DNA of 64,000 nucleotides from Scenedesmus sp. PABB004 (taxonomy: Eukaryota), in the NCBI GenBank assembly GCA_014905635.1, contig JABVCE010000013.1:1-64000 (forward strand). Reading direction: 5' to 3'. Below the pieces are notes generated by a model. That model had not been told where the DNA came from. It ran no database searches and saw only the letters and a list, made by a program, of their open reading frames with translations. The translations under genes and the position numbers were made by a program. Positions 17,486-62,887 of this stretch are shown here, one piece after another (the stretch's first letter is position 1; each line of letters starts with the position of its first letter).

Positions 17486-19657
17486 ATGCGGCTGCGCAAG
17501 CTGCTGCTGCGCTACTTCCCGCCGGGCGTCATCCTGCAGTACCACAAAGACGGCGCGGCGCGCTGCAAGCCCATCGACCTGCTGGAGCTCACGCCGGACG
17601 TCGACCTCGACGTGCGCCGCCGCGCTGCGCCCGCCGGCAGACGAGGGCCAGCGGCAGCCGGGCGCCGGCCGGCCGCCTGGCGCAGTGGCGGCGGCTGCGC
17701 CGCAGCGCGGCCCACGCGCGCCGCGCCGGCGCAGGTGCTCTGCACGCAGATCATCAGCCGCGAGCCGCTCATCTCCGAGAGCAGGCGCCCCGCGCTGCGG
17801 CAGCTGCTGGAGCGCCTGGTGGCCAAGCTGCTGGAGCCGCAGCACTCGCAGTTTGACCTCTTCAACGTGCGGCCGGCGCGCTCGCGGCGGCAGCGCGCGC
17901 AGCCGCGCGCAGCCGCGCGCGGCCGTGGCGGAAGCGCGCGGCGGCGACGCGGCCGGCCCCGCCGCGGCGCAGGTGCTGCGCGCGCACGTGCTGCCGCTGA
18001 CCAACTGCGCGTTCAACAAGTCGGGCAGCCGATTCATCACCGGCAGCTACGACCGCACCTGCAAGGTGCCCGCCGCGCCGGCGCCGCCGCAGCAGCCCGC
18101 CGGCGGCCGCGGCCGCGGCCGCGCGCGCGGCCAGCGGCGACCCCGGGGCGGGGCCCGCCCCAGGCCTGCCCGCCCCGCCGCAGGTGTGGGACACGCAGAG
18201 CGGCGAGGAGGTGCACACGCTCGAGGGCCACAAGAACGTGGTGCGCGGGCTGGCGGTGCCCGCGCAGCGCTGGCAGGCCGCGCTGCCAGCCGACGGGCCG
18301 CTCAGCCCCCTTGCGCCGCTGCGCGCCGCCGGCAGGTCTATGCGATCGCCTTCAACAACCCCTTTGGCGACAAGGTGGTGACGGGCAGCTTTGACAAGAC
18401 CGCGCGGCTGTGGGACGCACACACGGGGCGCTGCCTGCACACGCTGCGCGGTGCGATGCGGCGCGGCCGTCCTCCCGGACGTGCCACACCCCGGGCGCCC
18501 CGGCAGCCGCGACTCACCCCGCGGCACGGCCACGACGCCGCGCGCAGGGCACGACATGGAGATTGTGTGCACCGCGTTCAACCCGCACAGCACGCTGGTC
18601 GCGACCGGCTCGATGGACCACACCGCCAAGGCAAGCGCGGGCGCGCGCCGCGCTGCGCGTCAGCGTGGCGCTGCCGCGGGGCGCTCGCTCCCGCTCGGCG
18701 CGCCGCCACGCCCGCCGTGTCGCGCGTAGCTGTGGGATGTGGAGACGGGCAAGGAGCACGCCACGCTGGCCGGGCACACCGCGGAGATAGTGTCGGTGTG
18801 CTTCAGCACGTCGGGCGACCTGCTCGTCACGGGCAGCTTTGACCACGACAGCCGGCTGTGGGACGTGCGCAGCGGGCAGTGCGTGCACGTGCTGTCGGGG
18901 CACCGCGGCGAGGTCAGCAGCACCGTGTTCAACCACTCGGGTGCGCGGCAGCGGCCGGGCTGCCCAGCCCGGCGGGGGCAGCAGGGGCCTGACGCCGCCC
19001 TGCCGCCGCCGCCGCCCTGCAGACAGCCTGGTGCTGAGCGGCTCCATCGACGCCACCGCGCGCCTGTGGGACGTGCGCAGCGGGCGCTGCCTCTCGGTCA
19101 AGACGGGCCACACCGACGAGGTGCTGGACGTGGCGTTTGACGCCAGCGGCGCCAGCTTTGTCAGCGCCAGCGCCGACGGCACCGCCAGGCGCGACGCGCG
19201 CGGGACGGGCGCCGCGGCGCCGCGCGGCAGTCGCCGCGCGTGGCTCCTGACGCGTGCGGGCGCGCGCGCGCGCGCGGCGACGCAGGCTGTACAACACCAC
19301 GACCGGCGCCTGCCTCGCCACGCTGAGCGGGCACACGGGCGAGATCAGCAAGGTGGCGTTCAACCCCCAGGCCACGCGCCTGCTCACCGCCAGCAGCGAC
19401 CGCACCTGCCGGCTGTGGGACGCGGAGAGCGGGGAGTGCCTGCAGGTGAGGCGCGACCGCACGCACCCCGGCCGCGCGGCACCGGCGCGCCACGGCGCCG
19501 CCGCGCACGGCGCGCTCAGGTGCTGTCGGGCCACACGGACGAGATCTTCAGCTGCGCCTTCAACTACGAGGGCGACGCCATCATCACCGGCTCCAAGGAC
19601 AACACCTGCCGAGTCTGGCGCGTCGCCGACGGTCACGAGAGCGACGAGCCGTGCTGA
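17486..19657 (+). CDS. DAW1: Dynein assembly factor with WD repeats 1 (ODA16/WDR69), 10 exons
   Basis: N-terminus [19 protein letters not shown]...[42 protein letters not shown]-terminal [30 protein letters not shown]. Confidence 0.95.
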
Positions 19658-20226
19658 GCGCGCGGGCGCCCGGCCGCCCGCCGCCGACCGGGCGGGCAGC
19701 GGACGCCGCCACGGAACTCGCGGCAGTCCGCCCGGCACGCCGCGGGAGGCCTGCGCGCGGGAGCCGCGGCCGCACCGGCGGCGGCGTCCTCGAGGAACGT
19801 CACTGCCGCCGCCGGGTGCCGCGCAGCCGCGTCGGCTGCCGCTCCGTCCAGCCGCTCCCTGGTGACACCCGCTCACTGATTCAGGCCTCGCCTCGGCGTT
19901 CCCGCTCAACCAGGCCGCCTGCGAGGGCCCAGCTTCTGCCGAGGCTTGGCGGCCGCTGCGGTCCCTGCCCTGCCCGGCACACCGCCCAGCAGCGTCTTCT
20001 GAGCGCGTGGGGTAGCTCGCGCCACGCGTCTGGCCGCCGACGCGAGGGAGCAGCTCGTCTCCGCCCGCCCCCGCCCGCCAGGCGGCCCCCGCCCGCGGCC
20101 CCGGCCGACGCAGCTCAACGAGCTGCTCGTGGTCCCCGCCCGCGGGCGAGCGAGCGGCGGCGACGGCACCGGCAGCGGCGCCGGGCAGCGCTGCCGCCGC
20201 CCCCAAGCGCCGCTCGCGCAGACGCC

Positions 20227-23138: not shown

Positions 23139-25659
23139 ATGGCGCTCGCAGGTGCGCGAGCGCGGCTAGGGTTGCCTCGAAATGGCGGCCAGCGCCCCAG
23201 CGCGCCGCGCCAGACGCTCAGTGTGACGCCCGTGCGATCAGACTGCGCGTCAAGGGCGGCGGGGGCCCGCCCGGCCCCGCCTGCGGCGCCGCCTGTCGCG
23301 GCAGCCGATCTTGCTGCACGTGCCGCTGCCAGGCGGCGCCCACGGCCGGCGACGCGGGCGGGGGCAGCTCGCAGCGCGACGCGCGCACGACCGCACTCGG
23401 CAGGCGCAGCAGCGCGCGCCGCCGCCGGCCGCCGCTGCTGCCGCCGACGGGGCGCCGCTGCCGCGCCGCCGCGCCCGCGCCGCCGCCGCGCAGGCCGCCA
23501 GTCCACCTTTGCCGGCTCCCGGCTGGCCGGCCGGCCGGCGGGCCGCGCGCCGGCGCGCGTGGTGCGCCTGCCGGCCGTGCGCGCGGCGGCGAGCGGCGCG
23601 CAGGGCAAGGTGAAGAAGGTCGTGCTCGCGTACAGCGGCGGCCTCGACACGAGCGTCATCCTCAAGTGGCTGCAGGACACCTACGGCTGCGAGGTCGTCA
23701 CCTTCACCGCCGACCTCGGCCAGGCGCGCGCGCCGCCGCGCAGGGGGCCGGCCCGGGGCCCGAACCTCGGGCGCGCGCCGGCTGGCGGCCGGCCCTGGCC
23801 CCGGTCGCGAGCGCCGCCGCGCCGCCGCCGCCGCGCCGCCGCCGCCGCAGGGCGAGGAGCTCGAGCCGGCGCGCGCCAAGGCGGAGCAGATGGGCGTGAA
23901 GCAGATCTTCATCGACGACGTGCGCGAGGAGTTTGTGCGCGACTACGTGTTCCCCATGTTCCGCGCCAACGCGCTCTACGAGGGCGTCTACCTCCTCGGC
24001 ACCTCCATCGCGCGGTGCGCGCCGCGCGCACGCGGCGGCGGCGCCGGCGGCGAGAGGCAGCCGCGCGGCGGCGTCGGCGGCGCCGGGGCATGCGGCGGCG
24101 TCGGCGGCGCCGGCTTGGCGCTGAGCGCCCCGCCGCCGCGCCGCCGCCGCCGCGCCGCGCGGCGCAGGCCGCTGATCGCGAAGCGCCAGATCGAGATCGC
24201 CAAGGAGGTCGGCGCCGACGCGGTGTGCCACGGCGCGACGGGCAAGGGCAACGACCAGGTGCGCTTTGAGGTCGGGTACTACAGCCTCAAGCCTGACATC
24301 AAGGTCATTGCCCCCTGGCGCGAGTGGGACCTCAACTCGCGCACCAAGCTCATCGCATACGCGGGTGCGCGGCCGCGGCGGCGGGGGCGCATGTGCGGCG
24401 GGGGTCGCGCGCGGTCGCGGCGGCGGTGCGGGCGCGCGCTGCCGTGCCGCGCGCGGCGGGCGGCGCCCACGCGGCGCGCGCCCGCGCGCCGCGCAGAGGC
24501 GGCGGGCATCCCCGTGCCGAGCACGAAGCGCGGCGAGCCGCCGTTCAGCATGGACGCCAACCTGCTGCACATCAGCTACGAGGGCAACGCGCTGGAGGAC
24601 CCCTGGGACGAGCCGGACGAGTCGATGTTCACGCGCAGCGTCAGCCCAGAGGACGTGAGACCGCACCGCCGCGCCGCGCCGCGCCGCGCCGCGCCGCGCC
24701 GCCGTGCCGTCGCCGCGCGAGCCGGCAGCCGCTGAGCGGCGCGCCGCGCTCGCCGCCGCTCCGCCGCGGCCGTGCAGGCGCCGGACAAGGCGACGTACAT
24801 TGAGATTGAGTTTGAGAAGGGCGACCCCGTCAAGCTGGACGGCGTGGCGCTGAGCCCCGCTGCGATGCTGACCGCGCTGAACAAGGTCGCCGGCGACAAC
24901 GGCATCGGGCGCGTGGACATCGTGGAGAGCAGATTCGTGGGTGCGTGACGCGCGCGCCGGGGCGCGGCGGGGGCGGCGGGGCCGCGCGCCACGCGCCGCG
25001 CGGCGCAGGGGCGCGGGAGCGAGGGCCGCTGCCGAGCCCCGCCCGCGCGCGCGCGCGCGCGCGCGCGCGCGCAGGCATGAAGTCGCGCGGCGTGTACGAG
25101 ACGCCCGGCGGCACGGTGCTCATGACGGCGCGCCGCGCGATGGAGAGCATCACGCTCGACCGCGGCGAGGCGCACCTCAAGGCGCGCCGCACGCCCGCGC
25201 GCGCGCGCCTGCGCCGCGGCGCTGTGCGCGCGTGCCCGCGCCGCGGCCCCCGTGCCACGGCCCTCCCACGCCCCTGCTCGTGCGTGCGCGCTGTGCCCTC
25301 ACCCGCCCGCCCGCCCGCCCGCCCGCCCGCCCGCCCTGCCCTCACTCGCGCAGGATGACATCATGCCCAAGTACGCCGAGCTCGTCTACAACGGCTTCTG
25401 GTTCAGCCCCGAGCGCGAGGCGCTGCAGGCGCTGGTCGACGCGACGCAGACGTACGTCGCGGGCACGGTCCGCCTCAAGCTGTACAAGGGCAACGTGATC
25501 GTCGTGGGGCGCAAGAGCCCCTACAGCCTGTACGACCCGGTCATCGCCTCGTTTGAGGACGACAAGGGCCTCTACAACCAGGCCGACGCGGGCGGCTTCA
25601 TCAAGCTCCAGGCCCTGCGCCTCCGCACGCTCGGCGTCAACCGCCACAAGATGGTCTGA
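23139..25659 (+). CDS. ASS1: Argininosuccinate synthase, plastid-targeted, 8 exons
   Basis: [80 protein letters not shown]. Ala/Arg/Ser-rich transit peptide. Confidence 0.98.
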
Positions 25660-26220
25660 GCGCGCGCCCGCCGCGGCGCCCGCGGCGGCGCCCGCGGCGG
25701 CGGAGCGCTGGCCGGGGCGTAGAGGGGTCGGGCGGGGGCTGCGGCGGCGGACTGCTCTGTAGGGCGCGCAGCGCGCGTGATCGGACGCAGCTTGCACTTG
25801 TGCGCGCGCGCGGTCGGCGCGGCACGATGAAGACAGAGGGGCGCGCGCGGCGCTGGAGCGCAGTCGGGGGGCGGTCGTGAAACGCAGTGACGCACGGCGC
25901 GGCCACTGAGCGCTCCCACACGCCAGCCTGAGCTCGCAGCTCCAGCGCGGACGCAGCTCCAGCACGGACGGACGGGCGCGCGCGTGGCGGCCGCAGGCGG
26001 CGCGGCAGCAGCGGCGGACACCGTGCGGCGCGGCTCGCTCGGCGCGCGCTCGCTCAGCGGAGAGGTGTGCCCTGCGCGCGCCACGTCACGGCGCGGCAAT
26101 GAGCGACCCTGGCTCGCGCGTGCAGCGCCGACGGCAGCGGCCGCGCCGCCGGCACGCCCGCTGCGCGCCGCTGACGCCGCCGGCGCTGCTGGCCGCTCGC
26201 AGGACAGCGCGGCGCCTGCG

Positions 26221-26394
26221 ATGCTGCTGCGGCGCGGCCTGGCGGCGCCCGGCGCGGCGGCGCGGCGGCCGGGCGGCGCGGCGGCGCTGCTGCGGCGGCC
26301 CGCGTCGCTGCCGGCGGCGCCCGGCGCGCGCCCTGCGCCGCGCGGAGCAGAATCCCGGCCCCTGCACGTGGCGCATGCCAAAAAGAAGGGCAAG

Positions 26395-26439
<45 letters not shown>

Positions 26440-29400
26440 GGCAAGGCCGCGGGCGGCGCGCCCGGCGGCACGCGCACGAGCACCAAGGAGGTGCGCGCCG
26501 CGCGCGCCCGCAGCCGCCTACCAGGGGGGAGAGCCTGGGCCCGCGGCGTGCGCCGCGCGCCGCGCCCCGAGCACCCCCCCCCCCCCCCCCCCCCCCCCGT
26601 CCCTGCCGCAGGTGCGTGACGGGTCGTCGTACAGCCAGGAGACGCGCAAGATCATCCGTGAGTCGCGCGCCCCCGGGTCGGCGCGGGGCTGGCCCAGCCC
26701 CTGCACGGCAGGCCTCGGCTGGTTCAGTTGCTGGCGCGGCAGCGCCGACGCGCACAACGGCGCGCGGGCCGACCGCCGCGCGCCGCGCGCCGCGCAGTGA
26801 GCCTGGAGCGCATCCGCAAGGTCGCGCCCAACGGCAAGGAGGTGCTGTCCAACGTGTCGCTGGGCATGTACCTGGGCGCAAAGATTGGCGTCCTCGGCGC
26901 GAACGGCGCGGGCAAGTCTTCGCTGATGCGAATTCTGTCCGGCGACGACACCAGCTTCGAGGGCAACGTCGTGCGCGCGCCGGGCATCAGGCGCGACGGC
27001 GCCGCGCGCGCCGCAGCGGCGGCCGCAGGCCCGACTCCGCGCGCCGCCGCAGCAGGGGCGCGCCCCGGCCCAGCGCCCGCCGCCGCGCCGCGCCCCGCAG
27101 GGTCGGCTACCTCGAGCAGGAGCCGCGCCTCGACGCGGGCGAGACGGTGGCGGAGAACATCGCGCCCGCGGTGCAGCACATCAAGTGCGCCGGGGCCCCG
27201 CCGCCGCGCGCGCGCCGCCGAGCGCACGCGCATCGAGCACCGGTCCGCGCCGCGCCGCGCCAGGGACATGGTGGCCGACTTTGAGGCGGTGTCGATGAAG
27301 ATGAGCGAGCCAGACGCTGACCTGGACGCGCTGACCAACAAAATGACGCGCCTGCAGGTGGGTGCCGCCGGCGCCGGCACGGCCGCGTGAGCGCGCGCCG
27401 TGCCGCGCGCCGCGCATGGCACTGAGCGCCGCGTTGGCGCGCCTTGCAGGACGCGCTGGACGCGTGCAACGGCTGGGAGGTGGACCGGCAGGTGGAGCAG
27501 GCCATGGACGCGCTGCGGTGCGGTGCGCGCAGAAGGCAGCGCAGCGCGCTGCGCGCTGGGCGCTGCGTCCCCGCCGCCGCCGCCCGACCGCCGCTCGCCG
27601 CGCCGTGCGCAGCTGCCCGCCCGGCGACGCCCTGGTGGCCAACCTGTCGGGCGGCGAGCGGCGCCGCGTGGCGCTGGCGCGGCTGCTGCTGGCCGCCCCG
27701 GAGATTCTGCTGCTGGACGAGGTGCGGCGGCGCATGCGGCACCTCCGCCCGCGCCCAGCGCCGCCCGCGGAGAACCCCGCCGATCCCAGGCCGCGTCCGG
27801 CCACACCGCTGCCCTGCGGGGCGAGCTCACACCGCCGCCACCGCTGTCGCTGCCATGCTGTGCCGCGCAGCCGACCAACCACCTGGACGCTGAGAGCGTG
27901 GCGTGGCTGGAGCGGTTCCTGGGAGAGTTCAAGGGCACCGTCGTGGCGGTCACGCACGACCGGTGCGGCCGCACGGCGCGGCGCGGCGCCACGGCGCCCG
28001 CGCAAGCCCCTCCGCGCCTGCCTCGCGCACCCACATGCGCGCCCGCCCCCGCGCCGTCCTGCCATGCACCTCGTGGACCACAGCTACTTCCTGGACAATG
28101 TCGCAGGCGCGCGGCCACAGCACACAGCACGCAGCACGCACCACGCACCACGCACCACGCAGCACGCAGCACGCAGCACGCAGCACGCAGCACGCGTCGG
28201 CGACAGCGCGCGCGCGTGGGGCTCGCCAGCGGCGCAGCCGCCCATGCCGCCCCGCCCCTGCCGTGTCCTGACGCCGTCCTGCAGGGTGGATCCTGGAACT
28301 CGACCGCGGCAGCGGCATCCCCTTTGAGGGCAACTACAGCGGTGTGCGGCGGCGCGCAGCACGCGCAGCGCGGCGCAGCTGCGGGCGGGCGCAGCGCAGC
28401 ACAGCGCCGAGCCCCGCGCGGCCACTCCCCGCCCGCAGAGTGGCTCGCCGCCAAGGATCGGCGCCTGCAGACCGAGGCCAAGACGCAGGCGCACCTGCAG
28501 AAGGCGCGGCGCGCGCCGCGCCTGTCGTGCAGCGCCTCGCTCTCGCTCTCGCTCTCTCACGCGCGTGCCCTGCTGCTCGCGCGGTGTGGCCGCAGGTCAT
28601 TGAGCACGAGCTGGAGTTCATCTCCAAGCAGGCCAAGGGCCAGCAGGCCAAGGGCCAGGCGCGGCAGCGCCGCTACGACGAGCTCGTCGCTGCGGCCAGC
28701 GCCTACGTGCGCAACACGCAGGTGCGGCGCGCACACCCCCGCGGCGCCGCGCGCCGCGCCCGCCCGCCGCGCCCGCCGGCCGCCCTGGGGCCCCGCTTCG
28801 AGCGCCGCCGCCGCCGCCGCCGCCGATGACGACCTCCGCTCCCGCTCCCCCTCTCCCTCCTGCCCCGGGCGCCGCCCAGGTCGACAGCATCACCATCCCC
28901 GTCGGCCCGCGCCTCGGCAACACCGTGGTCGAGGTGGAGGGCGTGAGCAAGGCCTACGGCGACCGCCTGCTGGTGGAGGGCATGAGCTTCAGCGTGCCGC
29001 CCGGTGCGCGGCGCGGGGCGGGGCCAGGGCGCGCGCGGCGGGGGCCGCGCCGCCGCCGCCGCCGCCGCGCCGCGCCGCGCCGCGCCGCGCCGCGCCGCGC
29101 CGCGCCGCGCGGGGCGCTGCTCCCGCCGCGCCGGCGCCGTGCGTGAGCGCCGCGCGGCGCGCCCCCGGCGGCGGCCAGGCGGCGTCGTAGGCATCATCGG
29201 AGGAAACGGGGCGGGCAAGAGCACGCTCTTCCGCATGATCATGGGTGCGTGGCGCGGCGCGTGGAGCGGCGCGTGAGGCGCGGGGCGCTGCGCGCGCGGG
29301 AGAGAGAGCTCCGCGGCGGGCGCAGCAGGCGTGGGCGGGCATGCGGGCGGGCGCGCGAGAGGGAGGGAGGACGGGCGCAGGTCGGCGGCGCTTCTCTGCC

Positions 29401-30309
29401 CCCCGTGCGCGCCGCCGACGCCGCCGCGGCCACCGCGGCGCCGCCGCGCAGGCCAGGAGGCGCCCGACGCCGGCAGCATCAAGCTGGGCGAGACGGTGGT
29501 GCCCATGTACGTCGACCAGTCGCGCGACGCGCTCGACCCAGACAAGACGGTGCGGGGCGCGGCGCGGCGGCGCGTGGCAATGCGCGCCCCTCCCCCGCGC
29601 GCGTCGCGCCGCGCCGCACCGACGCGTCCGCGCCGCCGCCTGCCTGCCCAGGTGTACGAGGCGATCAGCGGCGGGTCGGACGAGGTCGACCTCAACGGCC
29701 GCACCGTCAACGCGCGGGCCTACGCCTCGTGGTACAATTTCAAGGGCTCGGAACAGTCCAAGAAGGTCGGCGTGCTCTCCGGGGGCGAGCGCAACCGACT
29801 GCAGCTCGCCTCCGTGCTGCGCCAGAGCGGCAACCTTCTTCTGCTTGACGAGCCGACCAATGACCTCGACGTCAACACTCTCAGGCGCGTGTGGCGCCAC
29901 GGCGCGGCCTGGCTGACGCGCCCGCGCGCCCGCCCACGCACGCGCGCCGCCGCCGCCGCCGCCGCCAGGTGCCTGGAGGAGGCGGTGCTGAACTTTGCCG
30001 GCTCCGTGCTCGTCATCAGCCACGACCGGTTCTTCCTCGACCGCGTGGCCACGCACATCCTGGCGTTCGAGGGCGACAGCAAGGCACGCGGCGCGCGAGC
30101 TGGGCGGCCGCGCGGCGCGCGCGCGTACGCGCGCCGCGCTCGGCGCGCAGCGCTCAGCGCTTTTGGCCCCGCCGCCGGGCGCGGCCACGCAGGTGACGTG
30201 GTTCGAGGGCGGCTACAGCGAGTACGAGGCGGCGCGCCGCGCGGCGCTCGGCGGCAGCGCGCTCTCCCCGCACAGGCTCAAGTTCAGGAAGCTGGCGGCC
30301 ATGGCATGA
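26221..30309 (+). CDS. ettA: ABC-F ATPase, EttA/YjjK (ChvD) type, with transit peptide, about 18 exons
   Basis: [127 protein letters not shown]. No TM domains. Confidence 0.93.
28118..28195 (+). repeat. Intronic 7-mer microsatellite (GCAGCAC/GCACCAC)n
   Basis: About 10 tandem heptamers inside the ettA intron 28107-28284. Confidence 0.85.
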
Positions 30310-30532: not shown

Positions 30533-31678
30533 TCAGCCCGCCTGCGGCGTCCCGTCCCGCTCCATCGGCTGCTGCTCCTGCTGCTCCTGCTGCTGCCCCG
30601 CCGGCGCGCCAGCCCGCCGCCGCCCGCGCCGCCCGCGCCGCACCGGCTCGCTGTCGCCGCCCTCGCCGCCGCTGGCGTCGCCGCTGCCGCCGTCGGCCTG
30701 CTGCGCGCCGCCGGCAGAGTCGGCCTCGTCCGCCACGTCCGCGTCGGCGGCGCCGCCGACGTCGTCGTCCTGCGAGGCCAGCAGCCGCCGCGCCTGCGCG
30801 GCGGGGACGGGGGACGGCGGGGCGGCGGCGCGCAGAACTCAGCAGCGGCGGAGGCCGCAGCGGCGGCGCAGGCGGCGGCACGGCGCAGCGCGCCCGCGGC
30901 GCACCTGCTGCAGCGCCTGCTTCATGTTGTAGTGCTGCCGGCGCATGGCCTCAAAGCGCCGCTTCTTGTCGCCGTCGCCGCAGCCCTCGCTGCCGCTGCT
31001 CGTCAAGGACGTGCTGGGCGCCTGCAGCCGCGGCGGCGCGTGCTGCTGCGCCGCCGCCGCCGCCGGCGCCGGCTGCTGCTGCTGCGGCTGCGGGCGGGGC
31101 AGAGCACGGCAGCGCGTCGGCGGCGACCGCGCCGCGCCGCGCCGCGCCGCGCCGCGCCGCGCCACGCGCGCCGCCCGGCCGCCGGCCCGGCGCGGCGCCG
31201 GGGGACCCGCACCTCTGGCGCGGCCGCGCCGGCGCCGTCGCTGCTGCCCGCCCCGCGCGGCCGGCTGGGCCCCGGGGGCGTGAACTCGGCGCCGCCGTTG
31301 CGCATGACGTAATCAAACGCCGTCATGCCGGGCGCCTTGGCACCCGCCGTCTCGGCCGCTGCACGGGGCGGGGCGAAGCGGGCGCTGCGTGTGCATCGAG
31401 GCGCCCGCCGCCTGCCGCGGCGCCCGCCGCGGCGCCCGCCGCGCGCGCGCGCGCGCACCCTGGTCGCCCGGCGCGCCGCCGCCCTCGTCGTCGTCGTCGA
31501 GCTCGAGGGGGCGCATGTCCTCGTCGTCGCCGTCGATCGGCGGCAGCGGCGCGTGGTACGGCGTCTTGGGCTCCGCGATCTTCACGCCGCTGTACTCCTT
31601 CTGGATCTCCGTGTTGGCGGCCAGGTTGTCCTCGTCCCACACCACGCGCGCCGCCTTCTTGCTGCCCGGGCGCGACAT
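30533..31678 (-). CDS. IPP2: Protein phosphatase 1 inhibitor-2 family protein
   Basis: RVVW (RVxF/W PP1-docking motif), [21 protein letters not shown], acidic tail. Confidence 0.9.
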
Positions 31679-32639: not shown

Positions 32640-35600
32640 ATGGCGGCGCCCCAGGGCCTGGTGCCACGGTGCGGCGGCGCGCGGGCGGGCGGCGGCGCCG
32701 GCCGGCGCTCGCGGCGCGCTCGAGCTGCGCGCGCACCCCCCCCCCTTCCCCTGCGCAGGCTGGCGTTTGGCTTTCGCAGCAGCGTGCGCGACGCACTGCA
32801 CTATGGCGACGACGGCGGCTTCGTGTTCCCCGCCGGCGCGGCGGTCGTGCTCGTCTCGCCCGACGGCCACTCGCACCGCTTCCTGCCGGGCAGCCCCGAC
32901 TGCGAGGGCATCACCGCGCTGGCGCTGTCGCCCAACAAGAAGCTGCTGGCGGTGGCGGAGCGCTCGGAGCGCGCCGTCGTGTGCGTATACGACCTCACCA
33001 CGCTCAAGCGGCGCAAGCAGCTGCTCGCCGCCGACGTCGGCGCACGGGTGCGCGTGCGCCGCCGCCGCAGCGCGGGGCGCGCGCGCGCGCGCGCGTACAC
33101 GCGCCGCGGCGCGGGCCGCCCACGAGCCGCGCCGGCCGCCGCCGCGGCGGCGCGCAGGAGTACGTGAGCCTGAGCTTCAGCCCGGACGGCAAGCTGCTGC
33201 TGGCGCAGGGCGGCGGCCCCGACTGGAACCTGCTGCTGTGGGCGTGGGAGAAGAGCAAGGTGGCCAGCAGCGTGCGCAGCACCAACCTCCAGGGCAGCCC
33301 CGTGGTGCAGGTGCAGCCCCGCTCCGCGCCGCAGCGCGCCGCGCCGCGCCCGCGCGAGCCGTGCGCACCGCCCCCACCGCGCGGCGCCGCGCCGCCGCGC
33401 GCCGCACAGGCGAGCATGAGCCCCGGCGAGGGCGCGCTCGTGACGGTGGTGGGCACGGGCGTGCTCAAGATGTTCAAGGTCGCCGACCAGGCGCTCAAGC
33501 CGCTGCCGCTCGCGGCCAACCGCCGTGACAGCCTCAGCTTCACCTGCCAGGCCTGGGTGCCGGCCGCGGCGGGCGCCGACGCCGCCGACGCCAAGGCTGG
33601 CGCCGGCGACCGCGAGCGGCAGCTGCTCGGCACGGCGGACGGCGAGGTGCTGCTCTTTGACGGCGCCGAGCCGCGCGCCACGTTTGCGGTGGACGAGGGC
33701 CGCGCCGTGGAGAGCCTGGCAGCGCACAGCAAGGGCTTCGTTGCCGGCCTGGACCGCGGCCTGGTCGCGCTGTTTGACCGCGACGAGCGCGACGCGTACC
33801 GCCGCACGCGGACCTTCACGATCATGGAGCACCCGCTGCCCGTCAGGCGCGCGCCGCGGCGGCCCCGCACGCGGCCGCCCAGCGCCGCCGCGCACGCGGA
33901 CGCCCGCCCAGCGCCGCCGCCGACGCCCGCGAGCTGCCGCGCGCGCGCGCGCGCAGGAGCCTGGCGATCAGCTCGACCGAGGAGCAGCTCGCGCTGAGCC
34001 TGTTTGGCGGCCCCGCGTTCACGCTGGCGCTGAACAACCAGGAGCTCATGAAGGCGGAGGACATGAACTTTGAGCTGCTCGGCCCCGGCGTGCACACCGC
34101 GGGTGCGCCCGCTGCGCGCGCGCAGCGGCGGCCGCCGGCGCCGCAGCCGCACGCCGCGCCCGCACCGAGCCGCCCCCGCGCCTGCCGCCCCGCCTGCCGC
34201 CGCGCGCGCAGCCGTGACGGGGCTCGACCTGTGCGTGCGGCGGCCGCTCGTCGCGACGTGCGGCGCCGACCACACGGTGCGGCTGTGGAACTATGCCGAC
34301 CGCACGTGCGACCTCAACAAGTGCTTTGCCGAGGAGGCCCACAGCATGGCGATCCACCCCTCGGGCCTGCAGGTGCGGGTGCCGCACCGCGCCGCGCCGC
34401 GCCGGGGCGAGCGCCGCCCGCTGGCCGCCGGCGGCAGCGCGCCGCGCGCCGCGCCTGGCTGACCACGGGCGCCGCGCAGCTGCTGGTGGGCTTTGCCGAC
34501 AAGCTGCGCCTGCTGAGCGTGCTCATGGATGACCTCAAGACGGTCAAGGAGGTGCGCCGCGCGGGCCGGGGACGGCCGCCCCGCTGCGCTGCGCCGCCAG
34601 CGGGGCCCGTGCGGGTGGGGGCGCCCGACCCGCCCGCCCCGCCGGCCCGCCTGGCCAGGTCGCGATCAAGGGCTGCCGAGACGTCGCGTTCAGCAACGGC
34701 GGCCAGTACTTTGCTGCCGTGAACGGCGTGACGCTGTCGCTGTACAACACCCACACCTGCGAGTGCCTCGGCAACCTGCGCGGCCACAACGGCAAGGTGC
34801 GCCGGCACCGGCGACGCGCTCCCGCGCGCGCGGCGCGCAGGCAGGCAGGCGGGTAGGCAGGCCAGCCCAGCGGGGGGGGGGGGGTGCCGTGCGCGCCTGC
34901 CAGGCACCCGAGCTGCCGCCGCCGCGCCCGCTCGCGCGTGCGTGCGCAGGTGCGCGCCATCTGCTGGGCCTCCAACGACGCGAGCATCGTGTCGGCGGGC
35001 GCCGACGGCGCTGTGTATGAGTGGCGCCTGTCCGACTTCAAGCGCGACAAGGAGAATGTCCTCAAGGGCTGCCAGTACAGGTGGGAGCTTCGCCCCAGCC
35101 GCCTGCATGCAACACGTGGGCTGAGCTGGCGCGCGCACGCGCTGTGGGGAGCTGCGCCGGCCGACCCCGCCCGCCGCCGCGCCCCGCGCCCCGCGCCCTG
35201 CGCCGCAGCGCCGTGGCGGCCACGCCCGACATGAAGGTCCTGCTCGCCGCCGGCAGCGACCGCAAGCTCAAGGAGCTCGAGGACGTGCCGGTGAGCCCCA
35301 GCACGCCCGCAAACACGGGGGGCCAGGCGACGCCCGGCCGACGGCCAGCGCCTGGGCTGAGAGCGGAAGGGCAGCACCCGCACGCGCAGGCGCCCCTGCC
35401 CTCTCACCGACCTGCCGCCGCCGCCGCCGCCGCAGGGCGCGGGCACGCAGGTCACCCGCGAGGTCGACACGCAGGTCGCCATCACCGCGCTGGCGCTGCC
35501 GTTTGGTGGCAAGGTCCTGTTTGCCGCCACCGAGGCGGGCGCTGTGCGGGGGTACAAGTTCCCGCTCACAGGTGCGCGCGGCTGCGTGCTGGGGCGGGCC

Positions 35601-38600
35601 AGCCGAGGTCGGGCCGCGCGGGCGGCCGCAGTGCAGTCTGGCGCGCGGCGCGGTGGCGGCCGCCGAGGGCTGCCGTGGCGCCGCCGGGTGTGCCGCGCAG
35701 GCGAGTTTTACGAGATCAAGTGCCACGAGGGCCCCGTGTCGCGCCTGCGCGTGAGCTACGACGACTGCCTGCTCGTGTCGGCGGGCGAGGACGGCTCGGT
35801 GGTGCTCATGGACATTCGCGACAAGGAGCTGGCCAAGGCCAGCGTGCGCCAGCAGCAGGCGCGGCGCCGCTCGACCAGGCCCCCCGCAGCCTGCCTGCGC
35901 CGGCCGGGCGGCCCCACGGCGCATCGACGCGGGAGCTGAGCCTCCGCTGCCGCCGCGCAGGAGCGGCTGCCGTGGAGCGAGGAGGTGCTGGTCAGCAAGA
36001 GCGAGCTGGAGGAGCGCCGGGGCCACGTGGCTGAGCTGGAGCAGCAGGTAGCGGAGCTCACGATGCAGACGGAGTACCAGCTGCGCCTCAAGGACCTGCA
36101 CGTGCAGGCAAGCGCGCGCGCGCGCGCAGCTGCTGCCCCCGAGTCTGCGCCTGCAGCCCGCGCAGCGGCTCGGCCTGGCGCCGGCCCACACCTCACTCGT
36201 GCCGCGCCGCGCCGCCCCGCCGCAGGAGCGCATCAAGGAGCTGACCGACCGCTTTGGCGCCGACCTGGAGGGCGGGCGGCACAAGCTGGACGCGCTGCTG
36301 GCGGAGAAGAACGAGCTGGAGCTGGAGTACGAGGAGAAGCTCAAGCAGGTGCGCTGTGCGCATGCGGGGGCGCGGCAGCGCACAGCGCACAGCGCACGGC
36401 AGGCGCAGCGCGGCCGGCGCGCGGCGAGCGGCCGCGCCGTTCTGCGGTGCGCGGCGGCTGACGCGGCCGCCGCTGTGGCGCCGCGCGCGCCAGGCGGACG
36501 CGCGGCACGCGTCGCAGCTGGCGGCGCTGGACGCGCAGTACCAGGGGCGCATGATGGCCGAGGTGGAGCGCTTCCAGACGCTGCTGCAGGAGAAGGAGGC
36601 GCTGAACGAGCGGTGAGCGGTGGCGTGCCTGCACCGCGCCGCGCGGGACGAGGCGGCTCGCGGGCCAGGGGGCGGCGGGCCTGCAGAGTGCAGCTGCGCC
36701 GCCGCGCGGCCTCGAGCCCGCCCGCCGCCGCGGTGCCACCGCCGCGCCCGCACCGCGCCAGATGGGACGAGCAGAACGCGCTGCTGGTGGAGAGCCACGA
36801 GCGCGTGATCGCGGAGCTGGCGGAGGAGGCGGAGGCCAAGCTCGCGGAGGAGGTGCTCGCGGCGGAGGGGCTGCGCCAGGAGAAGGAGGCGCTGGAGCGC
36901 GAGGCGGCCGAGGCGCGTGCGGGCGCCTGGCCGGCTGCCGCGCCGCCGCTCGGCGCCGCTAGTGCCTCTGCAGCTCGCGCGGCGCGGCGCGCGCTCAGTG
37001 CGCTGCGCGGCCGCCGCGTCGCGGCGCAGGTGAAGCGGCAGCTGGAGGAGGACGCGGACCGCGAGATCGAGGAGCTCAAGGACAAGTACGAGCAGCGCCT
37101 CGCCGGCGAGCGCGAGGCGTGCCTGCGGCTCAAGGGCGAGAACGGCATCATGCGCAAGAAGTTCCAGGCGCTGCAGAAGGACATTGAGGAGCAGCGCGAG
37201 CAGCTCAGCCTGCAGCACGAGCAGCAGAAGGAGCTCTACACCACCATCAAGGGTGGGCCACGCCGCCGCCACGCCGCGCCGCCGCGCAGCCCCCGTCCCG
37301 CTGTGCGCGCTGGCCGCTGACGCGGCGCGCCGCCGGCGGCGCCGCCGCCGCGTGCAGGGCTGGAGAAGGACATTGGCGGCCTGAAGCGCGAGATCCGGGA
37401 GCGCGACGAGACGATCGGCGACAAGGAGCGCCGCATCTACGAGCTCAAGAAGAGGAACCAGGAGCTGGAGAAATTCAAGTTTGTGCTCGACTACAAGATC
37501 AAGGAGCTCAAAAAGCAGGCGCGCGCGCGCCACCAGCGGCGAATGGGCGCCGGCGGCGCGTGGGCCGGCGCGGCTGACGCACCGTGCGCGCGCGCGTGCG
37601 CCGCCGCCAGATCGAGCCGCGCGAGGTGGAGGTCGGCGAGATGCGGGAGACCATCCGCGCCATGGACAGCGAGCTGGAGCGCTACCACAAGAGCAACGCG
37701 AGGCTGGACCTCACCATCCAGGCGCGCCGCTGCGCCCGCGCGGCGGCGCGCGGCGCGCCAGCGTCAGCGCTGACGCTCGCCCGCCCGCGGCCGCGCGCTG
37801 CTGCCCCGTCGGCGGCGGGGCGCAGAACCTGCGGCTCAAGGAGCACGGCCTGCAGGGCGAGGTGGTGGTGCAGCGGGGGGCGCGCGCCGACACGGAGCAG
37901 GCGGTGCGCCGGCTGCAGTCAGACATCGCTGAGCTGGCGGGCGCGATGCAGGACCCCAAGACGCTCAAGGACAAGGCGCGGCGCGCACCGCACGGCGAGG
38001 CCCCGCGCGGCGCGGCGCCGCCGGCGGCGGGCCCCGACCCTGTCCCCCCGCCCTCTGTGTGCGTGATTCCAGGTCAAGGCCCTGTACCAGCGCCACTGCG
38101 TGGACCCCGCGGGCGCGCCCGGCAGCCCGAGCGCCGCCAGCGGCCGCGGCGCCGCGATCGCCTCCCGCCCCGCCGCCGGCGCGCCAGGTGGGGCTGCAAT
38201 CCGAGCTTCGCGCGCGCGCGCGCCGCCCTGCTGGCCTGCTCCCGCCGCCCAGCGCGCCGCTGCCCGCCCGCGCCCGGCCTGCGTCGCGCACCGCGCGCCA
38301 GGCGGCGACGTGAGCGGCGAGTACGCGCGGCAGCGGAGCTACCTGGAGAAGATGATCGAGGGCCTGAAGCGCAAGCTCGCGGCCGACGCCGAGGCGCACC
38401 GCGCGGACGAGCTGCGCGTAATGGGCCAGAACGTGACGCTCATCAAGGAGATCAACGAGCTGCGCCGCGAGATCAAGGCGCGCGCGCTCGGCGGCGGCTG
38501 TCCGCCGCGCTCTCGCGGTCCGTGCGTCGCCGCTGGGCTCTGACCGCGCCCCCGCCGCGCGCCCGCAGACGCTCAAGACGGCGTCCGCGGCCGGCCGGGG

Positions 38601-39273
38601 CGGCGCGGCGGGCGCGCTGCGCGCGACCGCCGCCGGCCCCCGCGGCGTGGCGGGCCTCGGCAGCCAGGCGAGCGCCGGCAGCCTCAAGGGCGGGCTCAGC
38701 AGCGCGGCGCTGCAGCAGCAGGCGGCCGCGGCGGCGGCCGCGGCGGCGGCCGCGGCGGCGGCGCACCAGGAGGAGGCGCAGGCGCTGGCGCGGGAGCTGG
38801 ACATGCAGCGCGAGCTGATCGCCAGGCTGCGCGCCGAGCTGGAGGGCCGGGACGAGCACATCCGGGGCCTGCAGGCGGCCGCGGCGCCGCGGCCGACGTC
38901 GCTGGACGGCGCGGCAGCGGGGCCGGCGGTCGCGGGCGGCGCTGGGCGCACCAGCAGCAGCGGCGGCGGCGGCCGGCCCGGCAGCGCGGTGCCGGGCAGC
39001 CGTGGCAGCAGCCGGCGAGTGACGGGCGACCTGCAGCAGCTGGCGCGGCCCGGCAGCGGCAGGGCGGCCAGCCGGGCGGCGCCGGGGCCGTCGGCGGTGG
39101 CCGCCGACGACGCGGCGGGCGAGACGGGCCTGCGCAGCCGCGGCGGCAGCGATGCAGCGGCCGGCGGGGGTGACGGGCGGCTGGAGCCCGCGCCGTGGGA
39201 GACCGAGGATGAGGTCGACGCGGCAGCGGGCGGCGGCGAGGCGGCAGCGCTGATTGACGGCGCGGCCACGTGA
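32640..39273 (+). CDS. CFAP57: Cilia- and flagella-associated protein 57 (FAP57/WDR65) family, about 23 exons
   Basis: N-terminal WD40 region (AFGF...[72 protein letters not shown]) followed by a coiled coil ([52 protein letters not shown]). Which paralog it is cannot be resolved here. Confidence 0.93.
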
Positions 39274-49167: not shown

Positions 49168-49198
<31 letters not shown>

Positions 49199-58967: not shown

Positions 58968-61734
58968 ATGGCCGACAACCTGCAGGTGGGGGCCCCGCCG
59001 CGCCGCAGCGGCCTTCGCCGTCGGGGCAGATCAGCCCACTGGGCGTTGTGGCGGCGGTCCAGGCCGTCACGCGCGGCGACGGCGCGGCGCGCTCGAACGC
59101 ATGCGCGGAGCGCCGCCCGCGGGCCACGCCGCCCCGGCGGCGCGTGATCCCGCGGCCATGGACGAGGGGACGCGCGTCGAAGCTCTTGGGGCAGCCGCCG
59201 CGGCCGCCAGCGCCGCCGAGGGGCAGCAGCGCGGCGGCAACCGCCGCGCCCGCTGCCGCCGCGCCGCGCCGCGCGCCGCGCGCAGGAGCAGATGGCCATG
59301 ATGACCATGGACCCCGAGGACTTCGTCTCGCACCTCACGCCCGCGCTGCGCGCGCGCGTCGAGGAGCTCCAGGCGCGGCGCTGCGCCGGCCGCAAGCGCC
59401 GCGCCGCCGGCGGCCCCGCCCGGCGGCGCAGCCGCGGCCATGCGGCGGCCCGGAGCAGCACCCGGCCGGGGCAGGGCGCCGGCTGGCGGCCCCTGCCTGG
59501 GCACGCAGCCGCCTGTCGCAGCCGCCGGCCGCAGCCGCAGCCGCTGCGGCCGCCGCCGGCCGCAGCCGCCGGTCGCCGCGCCCAACCCCCTCCGACCCCG
59601 CCGCCCCTGTTTGTTTGTTTGTGCGCGGCGCGCAGGACCTGCAAGAGAAGCATGACGAGCTGGAGAAGGCGTTCCGCAAGGAGCGCGCCGAGCTGGAGGA
59701 GAAGTACGCCAAGCTCTACGGTGCGCAGCGGCGGCGCCGCTGCGGCGCCGCGGCGGACGCAGCCGGGCGGCAAGCAGCGGCACGCGGCGGCTGCAGCGAC
59801 GGGGGCGCCGCCGAGCGCCGCGCGACCGCCCGCCCGCCCGCCCGCCCGCCCGCGTGCCGACGCCGCGCAGCGCCGCTGTACGCGGAGCGCACCGCCATCG
59901 TGACGGGCGAGAAGGACGTGCCGCTGCCGGAGGGCGCCGACGCGCCGACCGGCGACGCGGGTGCGCCCGCGCGGCCGGCGGCTCCGCGTGCGCTGCTGGC
60001 GCCCGCGGCGAAGCGCCCGCGCCGCGCGCACCGCCCCGGCTGCCGCCGCCCCGGCTGCCCACACGCCACGCCCCGCCGCCGCGCCGCGCCGCAGAGAAGG
60101 GCATTCCCGGCTTCTGGGCGACGGTGCTGGCGCGCGCGGAGATGGTGCAGAGCGAGAAGGACGCCGACGCGCTCACCTACCTCACCAGTGCGCGCGCCGC
60201 GCCGCGCCGCGCCGCCAGCAGCGCGCGGCGCGCCGGCCGGCGGCGGCAGCGCCCGCGGCGGCGGCGGCGGCGGTCGCGGTCCAACACGCCGCGCCGCGCC
60301 GTGGCCGCGCCGTGGCCGCGCGTGCGCAGACATCACGTGCGAGACGGTGACGGGCACGAGCACGCAGCCCGCTGACGAGGAGGGCGAGGAGGAGGAGGAG
60401 GTCGAGACGACCGGCTTCAAGCTCACGTTCACGTTCAAGGAGAACCCCTACTTCACAAACACGGTGCCCGCCGCCACCCGCCGCGCGGCCGCTCGCTGCA
60501 CGCCTCCGCCCCGCCCGCTCCTCCCTTCCAGCCGTCGCGCGCGTCACACCCACAAGCGTGCGCTCGGCCGTCAAACCAACGCGCTCGCGCCCGCCCGCCC
60601 CCCTCGTGGGCCCCCGTCGCCCCCCCCAGGTGCTGACCAAGGCCTACTACATGCTCGACGACGACGAGCCCGTCCTCGAGCGCAGCGAGGGCACCGAGAT
60701 CGACTGGAAGGCGGGCAAGAACATCACCGTGAAGGCGCGCGCGGCGGCGGCAGCACGGCGGCGCGGCCGCGCTCAGGGCCCGCGCGCCTGGGCGGGAGCG
60801 TGGCACCCCGCGGCGCCCTTGCTCTCTGTTCTCTCCCTCCGTCTCCCTCTCTCCCTCCGTCTCCCTCTCTCTCTCCCCCCCCCCCCCCCCTCTCACCCGC
60901 CCTGCCCACACCTCCCGCCGTCCCTGCCGCCCAGGTGATGAAGAAGAAGCCCAAGAAGGGCGCGCGCCCCGACGCCAAGCCACAGACCAAGCTGGAGCCG
61001 GTGGAGAGCTTCTTCAACTTCTTCTCGCCCCCCCAGGCGCGGCGCCGCGACGCCGCGACGCCGCGCACCGCGCACCGCGCGCACCGCGCACCGCGCGCAC
61101 CGTGCGGTGCACCGCGCACGCCGCTGCTGCGCACGCGCAGCGCCGCTGCGACCGCCGCGCCGCGCGCCGCGGCCGCCTGACGCGGCGCCGGCCGCCCGAC
61201 GCGGCGCAGGTGCCGGACGACGACGCCGACCTGGACGGCGAGGAGATGGAGGCGCTGCACGAGGAGATTGAGGCCGACTACGACATGGGCGACACGATCA
61301 AGGCCAAGCTCATACCCCACGCCGTCGACTGGTGCGCCGCCCGCGCGGGCGCCGCCTCGCGCTGGCCGCGCACGCCTACTCGTGGCCCCCGCGCCGCGCC
61401 GCGCCGCGCCGCGCCGCGCCGCGCCGCGCTGTGCGCGCCTGACCCGGCGCGTCGCGCAGGTTCACGGGCGAGGCGCTGGACGAGGAGGGCATGGGCATGT
61501 TTGGCGGCGACGAGGACGAGGACGACGACGACGACAGCGACGACGAGGGGCAGCCACGCAAGCCGCGCGGTGCGGGCGGCGGAGCGGGGGCAGCGGGGGC
61601 AGCGGGGAGCGCGCCGCGCGCCGCGCGCTGCGCGCGCTCACGGCCGCCGCCGCGCCCCGCGCCGCGCAGGCCGCGCCGGCGGCGCCAAGGGCGGCGCGGG
61701 CGGCGAGCAGCCCCAGGAGTGCAAGCAGCAGTAG
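58968..61734 (+). CDS. NAP1: Nucleosome assembly protein 1, about 11 exons
   Basis: [68 protein letters not shown], acidic tail, C-terminal CKQQ. Confidence 0.96.
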
Positions 61735-62125
61735 GCGCGGGCTGCCCAGCGGCGGCGGGGTGCAGGGCGCGGGCTGCGTGCATGCGTGTGCACGCGCGGC
61801 CGCTGCGCGCGCAGCGCGCGCGGGCGGCGGAGGGGCGCGAGCGCGGCAGGGGGCGGGGCTGCATGTGACCGCCACGCGTCGCCCGTGACCGCTGCCCGCG
61901 CCCCCACGCATGCGCGCTCGCCGCGCCGCGCCGCCTGGACCCCGCGTGACGAGCAGCAGCGGGCGGCGCGCCGCCGCCCCACGCGCGCGCGCGGCGCCGC
62001 GCGCCCCGCACAGCCCGCTCTCGCCCGTACGCCGCCGCCCCGCTGCCCTCCACAGCACCGGCGCCCGCCTCGCTCGCCCCACGTCGCAGCCCCGGCCCCC
62101 CCTTGGCCAGCTCCCGCCTTCTTTC

Positions 62126-62887
62126 ATGACCGACGTCGTTGAGCCGAGCGTCGTTCCTGGCGGCTTCGGTGCGGGCAGGGGCGCGCGGGGGCTGCGGGGG
62201 GCGCGGGGCGCGGCGCGCTGCTGATTGCCGGCCGCCCCGCGCCGCAGACGCGTTTGCGGACGCGGCCGAGCAGGAGGAGAACACCGCGGGTGTGGACTAT
62301 GTCCACATCCGCGTGCAACAGCGCAACGGCAAGAAGAGCCTGACCACCGTGCAGGTGCGCGCATGCGCCACCCGCCGCGGCGCCCCCGCGCCGCGCCGGG
62401 GCCCCCGCCTGACCCGCCGTGGCGCGCAGGGCCTCAAGAAGTCGTATGACTACAAGAAGGTGCTGAAGGCGCTCAAGAAGGGTGCGCCGCGGGCCGGGGA
62501 GGCCGCGTTTGCCGCCGCGCGCGCCCGCGGCGCCCGCGCGACGCCCCCGCGCCGCCGTCCGCAGAGTTCTGCTGCAACGGCACCGTGGTGGATGACCCCG
62601 AGCTCGGCCAGGTGGGCCCCCGCGGTCTGAGCGCGCCGGGGCGGGCGCCTCCGCGCTGGCGCGCCCGCCTGCCGCGCCGCCCGGGCGCTCCGGGCGCCGG
62701 GGGCGCGCCCCCGGCGGCGCCGCGCCCGCGGCGACGCCCTCACGCGCCGCATGGCCACCGCCGCCGCCCGCACGTGCCGCGCCGGCAGGTCATTCAGCTC
62801 CAGGGCGACCAGCGCAAGAACGTGCTCCAGTTCCTCACCCAGGAGGGCCTGGTCAAGAAGGACCTGATCAAGATCCACGGCTTCTGA
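62126..62887 (+). CDS. EIF1: Eukaryotic translation initiation factor 1 (SUI1), 5 exons
   Basis: YVHIRVQQRNGKKSLTTVQGL, KKEFCCNGTVVDDPELGQVIQLQGDQR, IKIHGF*. Confidence 0.98.

Follow-up and report, generated by a model that had tools for sequence, protein, structure and literature searches.

The closest described counterpart of the introns reported here is found in the haptophyte Emiliania huxleyi, in whose 65% GC genome GC donors (5' splice sites beginning with GC) make up 56% of 241 curated junctions and 61-65% of those in RNA sequencing (RNA-seq) sets (Feldmesser et al. 2014, BMC Genomics 15:148, PMC4028052). These donors were validated by reverse transcription-polymerase chain reaction, Sanger sequencing and RNA-seq, nine of them being Sanger-confirmed, and the authors credit genomic GC content (PMC4028052). 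Among pelagophytes, GC-AG introns reach about 14-17% in Aureococcus and about 14% in Pelagomonas; they amount to 0.32% in the less GC-rich Aureoumbra and to 0.3-2% in plants and metazoans (bioRxiv 10.1101/2024.10.30.620910). A survey covering animals, fungi and plants reported a weak positive correlation of splice-site GC with genome GC (PMC7072748). Here we analyse GC-AG introns in a 64,000-nucleotide stretch of DNA from the chlorophycean green alga Scenedesmus sp. PABB004 (GenBank assembly GCA_014905635.1, contig JABVCE010000013.1, positions 1 to 64,000 of the forward strand), hereafter called the window, to whose numbering all positions refer unless another locus is named. No account of a green alga with frequent GC-AG introns came to light in our literature searches, and further papers and supplements may hold such data; a term search in two Sphaeropleales genome papers returned no text on splice sites. 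Within the Sphaeropleales, GC content extends from about 56% in Tetradesmus to above 70% in Monoraphidium, Raphidocelis and Mychonastes.

A first-pass annotation of the window had placed GC donors at 20 of the 69 introns of six conserved genes spliced by hand (DAW1, ASS, ettA, CFAP57, NAP1 and eIF1; Table 1). The same six genes were used here. Junctions covered by homologs were tested by alignment. Eight introns outside this coverage were taken straight from the sequence, and all have GT donors (ASS 23152, ettA 26491 and 26658, NAP1 61570 and all four of eIF1). The recount gave identical figures, with 49 GT and 20 GC donors, i.e. 29% GC (exact 95% confidence interval 19-41%), distributed as 2/9 in DAW1, 2/7 in ASS, 5/17 in ettA, 8/22 in CFAP57, 3/10 in NAP1 and 0/4 in eIF1, and all 20 coordinates read AG/GC (a slash marks the exon-intron boundary). 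The acceptor was AG in 69/69 introns, no GA donor was present among the 69, and none of the 69 donors had TATCC at +2 to +6, as in the U12-type donor [AG]TATCC. Position +3 was G or A in all donors, and +5 was G in 65 of the 68 tabulated. All 20 GC-AG introns thus start and end as introns of the U2-type GC-AG class do, and the six genes show a GC-donor-rich profile, with high GC content, more than 10% GC donors and conserved AG acceptors. At the level of predicted gene models, the frequent occurrence of GC-AG introns is confirmed.

Like E. huxleyi, this alga has a GC-rich nuclear genome with a major class of GC donors and an unchanged AG acceptor, and the cause named for E. huxleyi, GC content, is also the one considered here. 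The two differ in lineage, a haptophyte as against a chlorophycean green alga, in the share of GC donors, which is 56-65% at 65% GC there and 29% at 78% GC here, and in GA donors, which are about 4% there and 0/69 here. In addition, the E. huxleyi introns are RNA-validated, whereas those of the window are known from gene models. The pelagophytes resemble this alga in that a raised GC-AG share occurs in GC-rich algal genomes and is attributed to GC content; however, they are stramenopiles with 0.1-0.9 introns per gene and predicted models, and the six-gene fraction found here is about twice as high as theirs. GC sites are about 30 times commoner here than the approximately 1% of animals and plants. 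Dinoflagellate-type G(C/A)-AG introns differ from those of the window, where GA donors are absent and the best protein matches are chlorophycean.

The genes of the window are eukaryotic and intron-rich, with a strong three-base periodicity, and single exons find their best protein matches among chlorophycean green algae: a CFAP57 exon is 73% identical to Tetradesmus obliquus, a DAW1 exon 80% identical to the Chlamydomonas and Tetrabaena DAW1/ODA16 proteins, and a NAP1 exon 91% identical to the Tetradesmus NAP. The best identities of the fetched homolog proteins were 83-94%, with no transcript of the same species among them, and Pfam searches with single exons confirmed argininosuccinate synthase, ABC_tran, WD40, NAP and SUI1. 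G+C amounts to 78% of the window. The dinucleotide GC (frequency 0.207) is six times commoner than GT (0.036), so that a GC beside an exon end says little on its own; the 4-mer AGGC has a frequency of 0.0064. This abundance is what gives weight to an artefactual origin of the GC donors, in which the true introns would use a GT a few bases off, with other acceptors or small indels, since a GC nearly always lies near an exon end. Such an artefact is further favoured by an in-frame GT lying 6 nucleotides from three of the GC donors (29885, 36108 and 60735), and by the false calls that our own aligner made when GC was allowed freely (at 18945, 28724, 33316 and 38131).

Placement was examined with a purpose-written protein-to-genome spliced aligner, using four to five homologs per gene, namely algal proteins for CFAP57, DAW1 and NAP1, bacterial argG open reading frames (ORFs) for ASS and bacterial EttA ORFs for ettA. 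All five GC donors of ettA were recovered with 5/5 EttA homologs and all three of NAP1 with 3/3 homologs, while for CFAP57 eight of eight were recovered with P0007 and P0010, seven with P0020 and four with the most distant homolog, P0016. Both ASS donors were found with two of the four argG ORFs, of which L001 and L002 are truncated or wrong. The DAW1 alignments were noisy, and the placement of its donors was settled by junction enumeration, described below. Against an artefact, alignments restricted to GT scored lower in every case, by 67-362 points per gene and homolog (for CFAP57 with P0007, 3092 as compared to 3441 when GC was permitted), and the decoy dinucleotides CG, GG, CC, CA, AG and TG always scored below GC.

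For junction enumeration, all frame-compatible candidates within 45 nucleotides on either side of 61 junctions, with any donor dinucleotide and an AG acceptor (31-306 candidates each), were scored by global alignment to five homologs, a procedure blind to the donor dinucleotide. The modelled GT donor ranked first at 36 of the 40 GT junctions, which validates the method, and at 18 of the 20 GC sites the top rank went to the GC donor. At 15 of these sites, even the highest-scoring GT candidate fell 59-524 points short, and the other five (19189, 28504, 36913, 37722 and 37976) had no GT candidate. The probability that at least 18 of 20 homology-defined boundaries fall on AGGC by chance is about 5e-38. 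In local alignments to the first homolog, 17 of the 20 junctions were gap-free within 12 residues and two had one or two gap columns; the 18631 junction was gap-free against P0043, P0054, P0062 and P0069. The least certain of the 20 is 38478, where 18/24 positions were identical and a two-residue gap was present. Use of the three nearby in-frame GTs would add or remove two residues in blocks that are 20-22/24 identical to the homologs. Given these results, we regard misplacement of the GC donors as very improbable.

A homolog-free ab initio parser, trained with one gene left out at a time, also supported this placement. It scored codons by log-odds and splice sites by a matrix for donors and acceptors in which +1 and +2 do not count. 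When both GT and GC were allowed, it recovered 62/68 introns exactly, including 19/20 GC introns and all four eIF1 introns, as compared to 44/68 with GT only and 39-45 with decoy dinucleotides, which also gave lower total scores.

Several further GC candidates were rejected. At 33316, a GT at 33311 outscores the GC; 18945 and 28724 are preceded by TG and GT, not by AG, and lie within 8-14 points of GT donors; and 38623, 38694 and 38914 are inside a single open final exon of CFAP57. For the CFAP57 intron within 38125-38301, the candidates are cag/GT at 38188 and GC at 38125 or 38131, neither GC being preceded by AG. The donor is probably the cag/GT at 38188, following a 19-residue low-complexity insert rich in Ala, Gly, Pro and Ser that the homologs do not have; this insert has a codon log-odds of -10.2, and in the donor matrix 38188 scores 3.3 as compared to -3.2 for the alternative.

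As the first-pass annotation had observed, GC donors occur only after exonic AG (20/20, as compared to 18/49 GT donors; Fisher p=3.4e-7), mostly in the context AG/GCGCG (17/20, with AG/GCAAG in 2/20 and AG/GCACG in 1/20), and about half of the AG-preceded donors are GC (20/38), whereas GC accounts for 0/31 of the donors not preceded by AG. This strict rule is not stated in the available portion of the E. huxleyi account (PMC4028052). It had also been claimed that the GC donors lack a consensus at +3 to +6. This is wrong, because they match the alga's own consensus, which is not GTAAGT. The GT donors follow G/GTGCG (n=48; -1G 41/48, -2A 21/48, +3G 48/48, +4C 37/48, +5G 45/48), and the GC donors (n=20) have -2A and -1G in 20/20, +3G in 17/20 (the remaining three carry A), +4C in 18/20 and +5G in 20/20. 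With a matrix built from GT donors over -3 to -1 and +3 to +6, GC donors scored 6.1 bits and GT donors 3.7 bits (p=1.8e-5); over +3 to +6 alone the two classes were equal (2.74 and 2.70 bits). That a better fit elsewhere in the donor compensates for C at +2 is a familiar property of GC 5' splice sites. In animals and plants such sites are likewise U2-type donors that carry C at +2 and match more strongly elsewhere (PMC3167603), here represented by -2A, -1G and +5G in all 20; in contrast to the animal and plant GCAAGT, however, the compensation here follows the local GCGCG, with A at +3 in only 3/20.

Matches were also counted over nine positions of the textbook donor CAG/GTRAGT, which may not correspond to the U1 of this alga, and averaged 5.8 of 9 for GC donors, 5.9 for all GT donors, 6.7 for AG-preceded GT donors and 5.45 for the other GT donors. 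The loss of the +2 match in an AG-preceded donor would thus be tolerable, since the GC donors (5.8) are still above the weakest working class (5.45). The two intron classes were otherwise similar. Median lengths were 110 nucleotides for GC and 121 for GT introns, GC contents were 86% and 87%, and the acceptor profiles showed no visible difference. Phase 0 was found in 15/20 GC and 23/49 GT introns, an excess that is expected if the AG closes a CAG, AAG or GAG codon.

The first-pass annotation had linked the GC donors to extreme GC richness, and the composition of the window makes this link plausible. In the interior of introns the C/(C+T) ratio is 0.88, and at third codon positions 0.95; at +2 it is 0.53 in AG-preceded donors and 0 in the others (upper 95% bound 0.11). 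Very probably, these are ordinary U2-type GC-AG introns that became frequent under GC-biased substitution and are tolerated only where exonic AG offsets the lost pairing at +2. Extreme GC-biased substitution, by mutation bias and/or GC-biased gene conversion, would have generated a large GC-AG class, about 29% in the six genes. Among the core donor positions, +2 is the most tolerant. A change from T to C there, the direction that the data suggest, would be nearly neutral only in an otherwise strong site, with exonic A at -2 and G at -1 together with the alga's own +3G, +4C and +5G. In AG-preceded donors, T and C at +2 (18 T, 20 C) would then be near mutation-selection balance, and from the other donors C would be excluded (0/31). 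Scaled selection against C at +2 would be about 1.9, i.e. mild, in the former and above 4, i.e. strong, in the latter, as if a threshold of U1 pairing allowed an AG-preceded donor to survive the loss at +2 and a donor of the other kind not to survive it.

A change in U1, U5 or U6 is not needed as an explanation. Nevertheless, as the first-pass annotation had inferred, the splicing machinery itself might have been altered, for example by a variant of the U1 5' end or of U6/Prp8 reading C at +2 as well as T. The GC fraction, 15-100 times the 0.3-2% of plants and animals (bioRxiv 10.1101/2024.10.30.620910), would fit such a change, as would the deviation of the alga's own consensus GTGCG from GTAAGT at +4 and +6. 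However, if C were read like T, the dependence on exonic AG, which is without exception on both sides, would not be expected, and C at +2 of AG-preceded donors (0.53) is below its neutral level of 0.88-0.95, indicating that T is still preferred. Altered machinery is therefore improbable. A Rfam scan of the whole window matched 0 families, and no small nuclear RNA gene was found in it. A more far-reaching version would make this the first green-plant genome with GC-AG introns as a major class, whose spliceosome (U1 5' end, U6 or 5' splice-site proofreading proteins) co-evolved with a nuclear GC content near the upper limit; the strict AG rule would then mark the limit of an altered, not of a standard, machinery. 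We consider this version doubtful too, if slightly less so.

To compare orthologous introns, as the first-pass annotation had proposed as a check for GT-to-GC switches, a metagenome scan with a DAW1 exon was used to obtain orthologous loci of less GC-rich relatives, and the DAW1 protein of the window was aligned to them. The check came out in favour of such switches at both DAW1 GC introns: the intron at residue 327, phase 2 (19189), is aag/GTAGGC in L096 (61.5% GC), and that at residue 202, phase 0 (18631), is aag/GTGTGA in L103 (51.6% GC). Both GT orthologs are AG-preceded, as expected under tolerated GC-biased substitution, and their GT state is paralleled by the low GC-AG share of Aureoumbra. 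It did not come out in one direction throughout, because at residue 174, phase 1, L096 has aag/GCAAGC where the window has gcg/GT. Only DAW1 introns could be compared in this way, since the synteny search with ASS, ettA, CFAP57, NAP1 and eIF1 in the metagenome loci yielded only WD-repeat cross-hits. DAW1 has 9 introns in the window and 10-11 in L096 and L103.

Among these relatives, this intron of L096 (9279-9410) aligned better with its GC donor, aag/GCAAGC (+41 points), as did a DAW1 intron of L106 (1451-1533) with aag/GCAGGT (+20 points), again after AG. In two metagenome contigs of approximately 64% GC, L091 (9398-10639) and L092 (4234-5475), DAW1 residues 2-415 were aligned with zero introns.

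Selection for regulated splicing or for the retention of introns could also maintain the GC donors as weak sites, which would be compatible with tolerated GC-biased substitution. In E. huxleyi, reads were found throughout 89% of 535 inspected introns (PMC4028052), and in plants GC-AG sites frequently show conservation between homologous positions (PMC7072748). In the window, however, the two orthologous introns compared are GT in the relatives, so that GC is not conserved; with +2 left aside, the GC donors outscore the GT donors instead of falling below them; and both housekeeping and flagellar genes contain them. A regulatory role is thus unlikely.

How far the 29% can be generalized was considered outside the six genes. 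The protein P0138 is identical at 1308/1308 residues to the spliced translation of the tandem-esterase gene at window positions 5282-10898 (minus strand), only if a GC donor is permitted, and is therefore evidently a public gene model of this DNA; one exon matched the Pfam family Esterase. The model appears to be imperfect. It reads through approximately 1.8 kb (9520-7698), including at least one likely GT-AG intron (7956-7843) omitted by four other homologs, and across this region it is probably partly wrong.

The requirement of P0138 for a GC donor also bears on errors in assembly or base calling, by which the true base at +2 would be T. Extreme GC content can trouble sequencing, although direct support for such errors is nil. 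Against them, the same context is found with either base, for example cag/GTGCGCGC and cag/GCGCGCGC with three cases each, which makes a context-driven miscall unlikely; the errors would need to strike +2 of 20/38 AG-preceded donors and of 0/31 others; and the coding exons are open and 80-95% identical to the homologs around the junctions. With P0138, matching the window over its full length, likewise needing a GC donor, sequencing error is extremely improbable.

A number of observations weigh against frequent, tolerated GC-AG introns as described above, or limit how far they extend. The proportion of 29% rests on six genes chosen in the first-pass annotation, and P0138 contains 12 GT introns and one GC intron (1/13), so that this proportion may not generalize. 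For 11 further gene regions, the ab initio parser called 59 introns, 41 with GT and 18 with GC donors, a figure of no use for the proportion since the decoys CG (17) and CC (16) did nearly as well; the decoy GG reached 10. In the six genes, the parser made five false GC calls (5/24) when GT and GC were allowed. The decoy CG at +3 was only 8-43 points below GC per gene, a one-codon shift not always being separable by homology, and two GC donors, 33847 (second) and 38478 (fourth), were not top-ranked. We infer actual splicing at the 20 sites from protein colinearity. For the direction from T to C the evidence is two orthologous introns, and the opposite configuration in L096 indicates that switches may go both ways. 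Across the genome, GC donors may make up any share between about 10% and 30%.

If gene prediction admits GT as the sole donor, it will go wrong at roughly 1/4 to 1/5 of introns, both in this alga and in others of very high GC content. Annotation that assumes GT mispredicts junctions in E. huxleyi; in the window, P0138 reads through likely introns. Such errors stay hidden as read-through 'exons', because GC-rich introns rarely hold stop codons, and P0138 appears to show an error of this kind. The contrast at +2 between the 20/38 AG-preceded donors with C and the 0/31 others, against a neutral level of 88-95% C, provides a natural experiment on the pairing needed at a 5' splice site and shows how far mutation pressure can reach into a core splicing signal. 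The main observation is real, but that extreme GC richness affects splice sites in this manner was known before, the principle having been established in E. huxleyi and the pelagophytes; what is added is another lineage, a still higher GC content and a sharper context rule, the unusually clean requirement for a preceding AG, and not a new mechanism.

Table 1. Positions in the window of the six genes, of their 20 GC-AG introns and of one GC-AG intron outside them. Rank is the place among frame-compatible donors of any dinucleotide, scored against five homologs; the best GT alternative is given in points below the GC donor.
Feature	Positions	Strand	Observations
DAW1/ODA16-like WD-repeat gene	17486..19656	+	9 introns, 2 GC donors; exon matches Chlamydomonas DAW1 and Tetrabaena ODA16; Pfam WD40
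Argininosuccinate synthase (ASS) gene	23139..25746	+	7 introns, 2 GC donors; Pfam Arginosuc_syn_C 1.5e-29 (one exon); bacterial argG homologs
EttA-like ABC-F gene (ettA)	26380..30309	+	17 introns, 5 GC donors; aligned to bacterial EttA ORFs from L081-L085; Pfam ABC_tran (one exon)
CFAP57 (WDR65)-like gene	32640..39100	+	22 introns, 8 GC donors; exon matches Tetradesmus, Pleodorina and Haematococcus CFAP57/WDR65; 3' end approximate
NAP1-like nucleosome assembly protein gene	58968..61734	+	10 introns, 3 GC donors; Pfam NAP (one exon); Tetradesmus NAP and relatives
eIF1/SUI1 gene	62126..62887	+	4 introns, all GT, donors 62169, 62355, 62482, 62612; Pfam SUI1 (last exon)
GC-AG intron aag/GCAAGC, DAW1, phase 0	18631..18729	+	rank 1/124; best GT 230 lower
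GC-AG intron cag/GCGCGA, DAW1, phase 2	19189..19285	+	rank 1/62; no frame-compatible GT within 45 nucleotides
GC-AG intron cag/GCGCGC, ASS	23724..23850	+	rank 1/248; best GT 220 lower; 22/24 identical, no gap
GC-AG intron aag/GCGCGC, ASS	25182..25353	+	rank 1/93; best GT 87 lower; 19/24 identical, no gap
GC-AG intron cag/GCGCGA, ettA	26991..27100	+	rank 1/208; best GT 253 lower; recovered with 5/5 homologs
GC-AG intron cag/GCGCGC, ettA	28107..28284	+	rank 1/65; best GT 524 lower; 5/5 homologs
GC-AG intron aag/GCGCGG, ettA	28504..28595	+	rank 1/217; no GT candidate; 5/5 homologs
GC-AG intron cag/GCGCGT, ettA	29885..29968	+	rank 1/91; best GT (29891) 59 lower, adding 2 residues to a conserved ABC stretch
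GC-AG intron aag/GCACGC, ettA	30084..30192	+	rank 1/208; best GT 249 lower
GC-AG intron cag/GCGCGC, CFAP57	33847..33956	+	rank 2/270, one point below a one-codon CG shift; best GT 95 lower
GC-AG intron cag/GCGCGG, CFAP57	35859..35960	+	rank 1/306; best GT 130 lower
GC-AG intron cag/GCAAGC, CFAP57	36108..36225	+	rank 1/155; in-frame GT 36102 (6 nucleotides upstream) 90 lower, would drop 2 conserved residues
GC-AG intron gag/GCGCGT, CFAP57	36913..37029	+	rank 1/278; no GT candidate
GC-AG intron cag/GCGCGC, CFAP57	37519..37610	+	rank 1/186; best GT 405 lower
GC-AG intron cag/GCGCGC, CFAP57	37722..37825	+	rank 1/155; no GT candidate
GC-AG intron aag/GCGCGG, CFAP57	37976..38072	+	rank 1/93; no GT candidate
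GC-AG intron aag/GCGCGC, CFAP57	38478..38568	+	rank 4/62, 12 points below top; best GT 316 lower; weakly conserved region
GC-AG intron cag/GCGCGG, NAP1	59373..59635	+	rank 1/245; best GT 168 lower
GC-AG intron aag/GCGCGC, NAP1	60735..60934	+	rank 1/217; best GT 105 lower; 22/24 identical, no gap
GC-AG intron cag/GCGCGG, NAP1	61037..61209	+	rank 1/124; best GT 421 lower; 23/24 identical, no gap
GC-AG intron aag/GCGAGC, tandem-esterase gene outside the six genes	10729..10801	-	identity with P0138 requires the GC donor

The first intron of ASS (23152-23493) has the donor cag/GT, the last intron of NAP1 (61570-61669) has a GT donor, and the final exon of CFAP57 begins at 38569. The spliced reading frame of ettA is open up to the stop. 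At the N-terminus of ettA, a (GGC)n run at 26395-26443 encodes a poly-glycine stretch, and the first intron contains a run of approximately 26 C at about 26572-26598; no in-frame ATG was found in the part read, and the true start may lie upstream.

A gene for protein phosphatase inhibitor-2 (IPP-2) is located between ettA and CFAP57, at 30554-31666 on the minus strand (Pfam 6.6e-11, one exon); its ab initio model has four introns, all GT. Near the start of the window, at 220-3303 on the plus strand, an open frame of 1028 residues encodes a Ty1/copia-type polyprotein with the Pfam domains gag_pre-integrs, rve, SH3_retrovirus and RVT_2 (3.9e-61), and this element lies in the sole lower-GC stretch of the window (67% as compared to 78%). 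A direct duplication of 1.06 kb, 96.6% identical, is found at 3824-4882 and 11549-12622 on the plus strand, the first copy adjoining the copia element. The duplicated segment includes the first exon of a glycosyltransferase-like gene, both copies having the same peptide blocks, and as it spans a single exon it is uninformative on donors. Finally, the T. obliquus CFAP57 (P0002) and NAP (P0133) proteins carry the tags OEZ85_009771 and OEZ85_009754, 17 apart on the same 5.46-Mb contig, which suggests that the CFAP57-NAP1 neighbourhood of the window is conserved.

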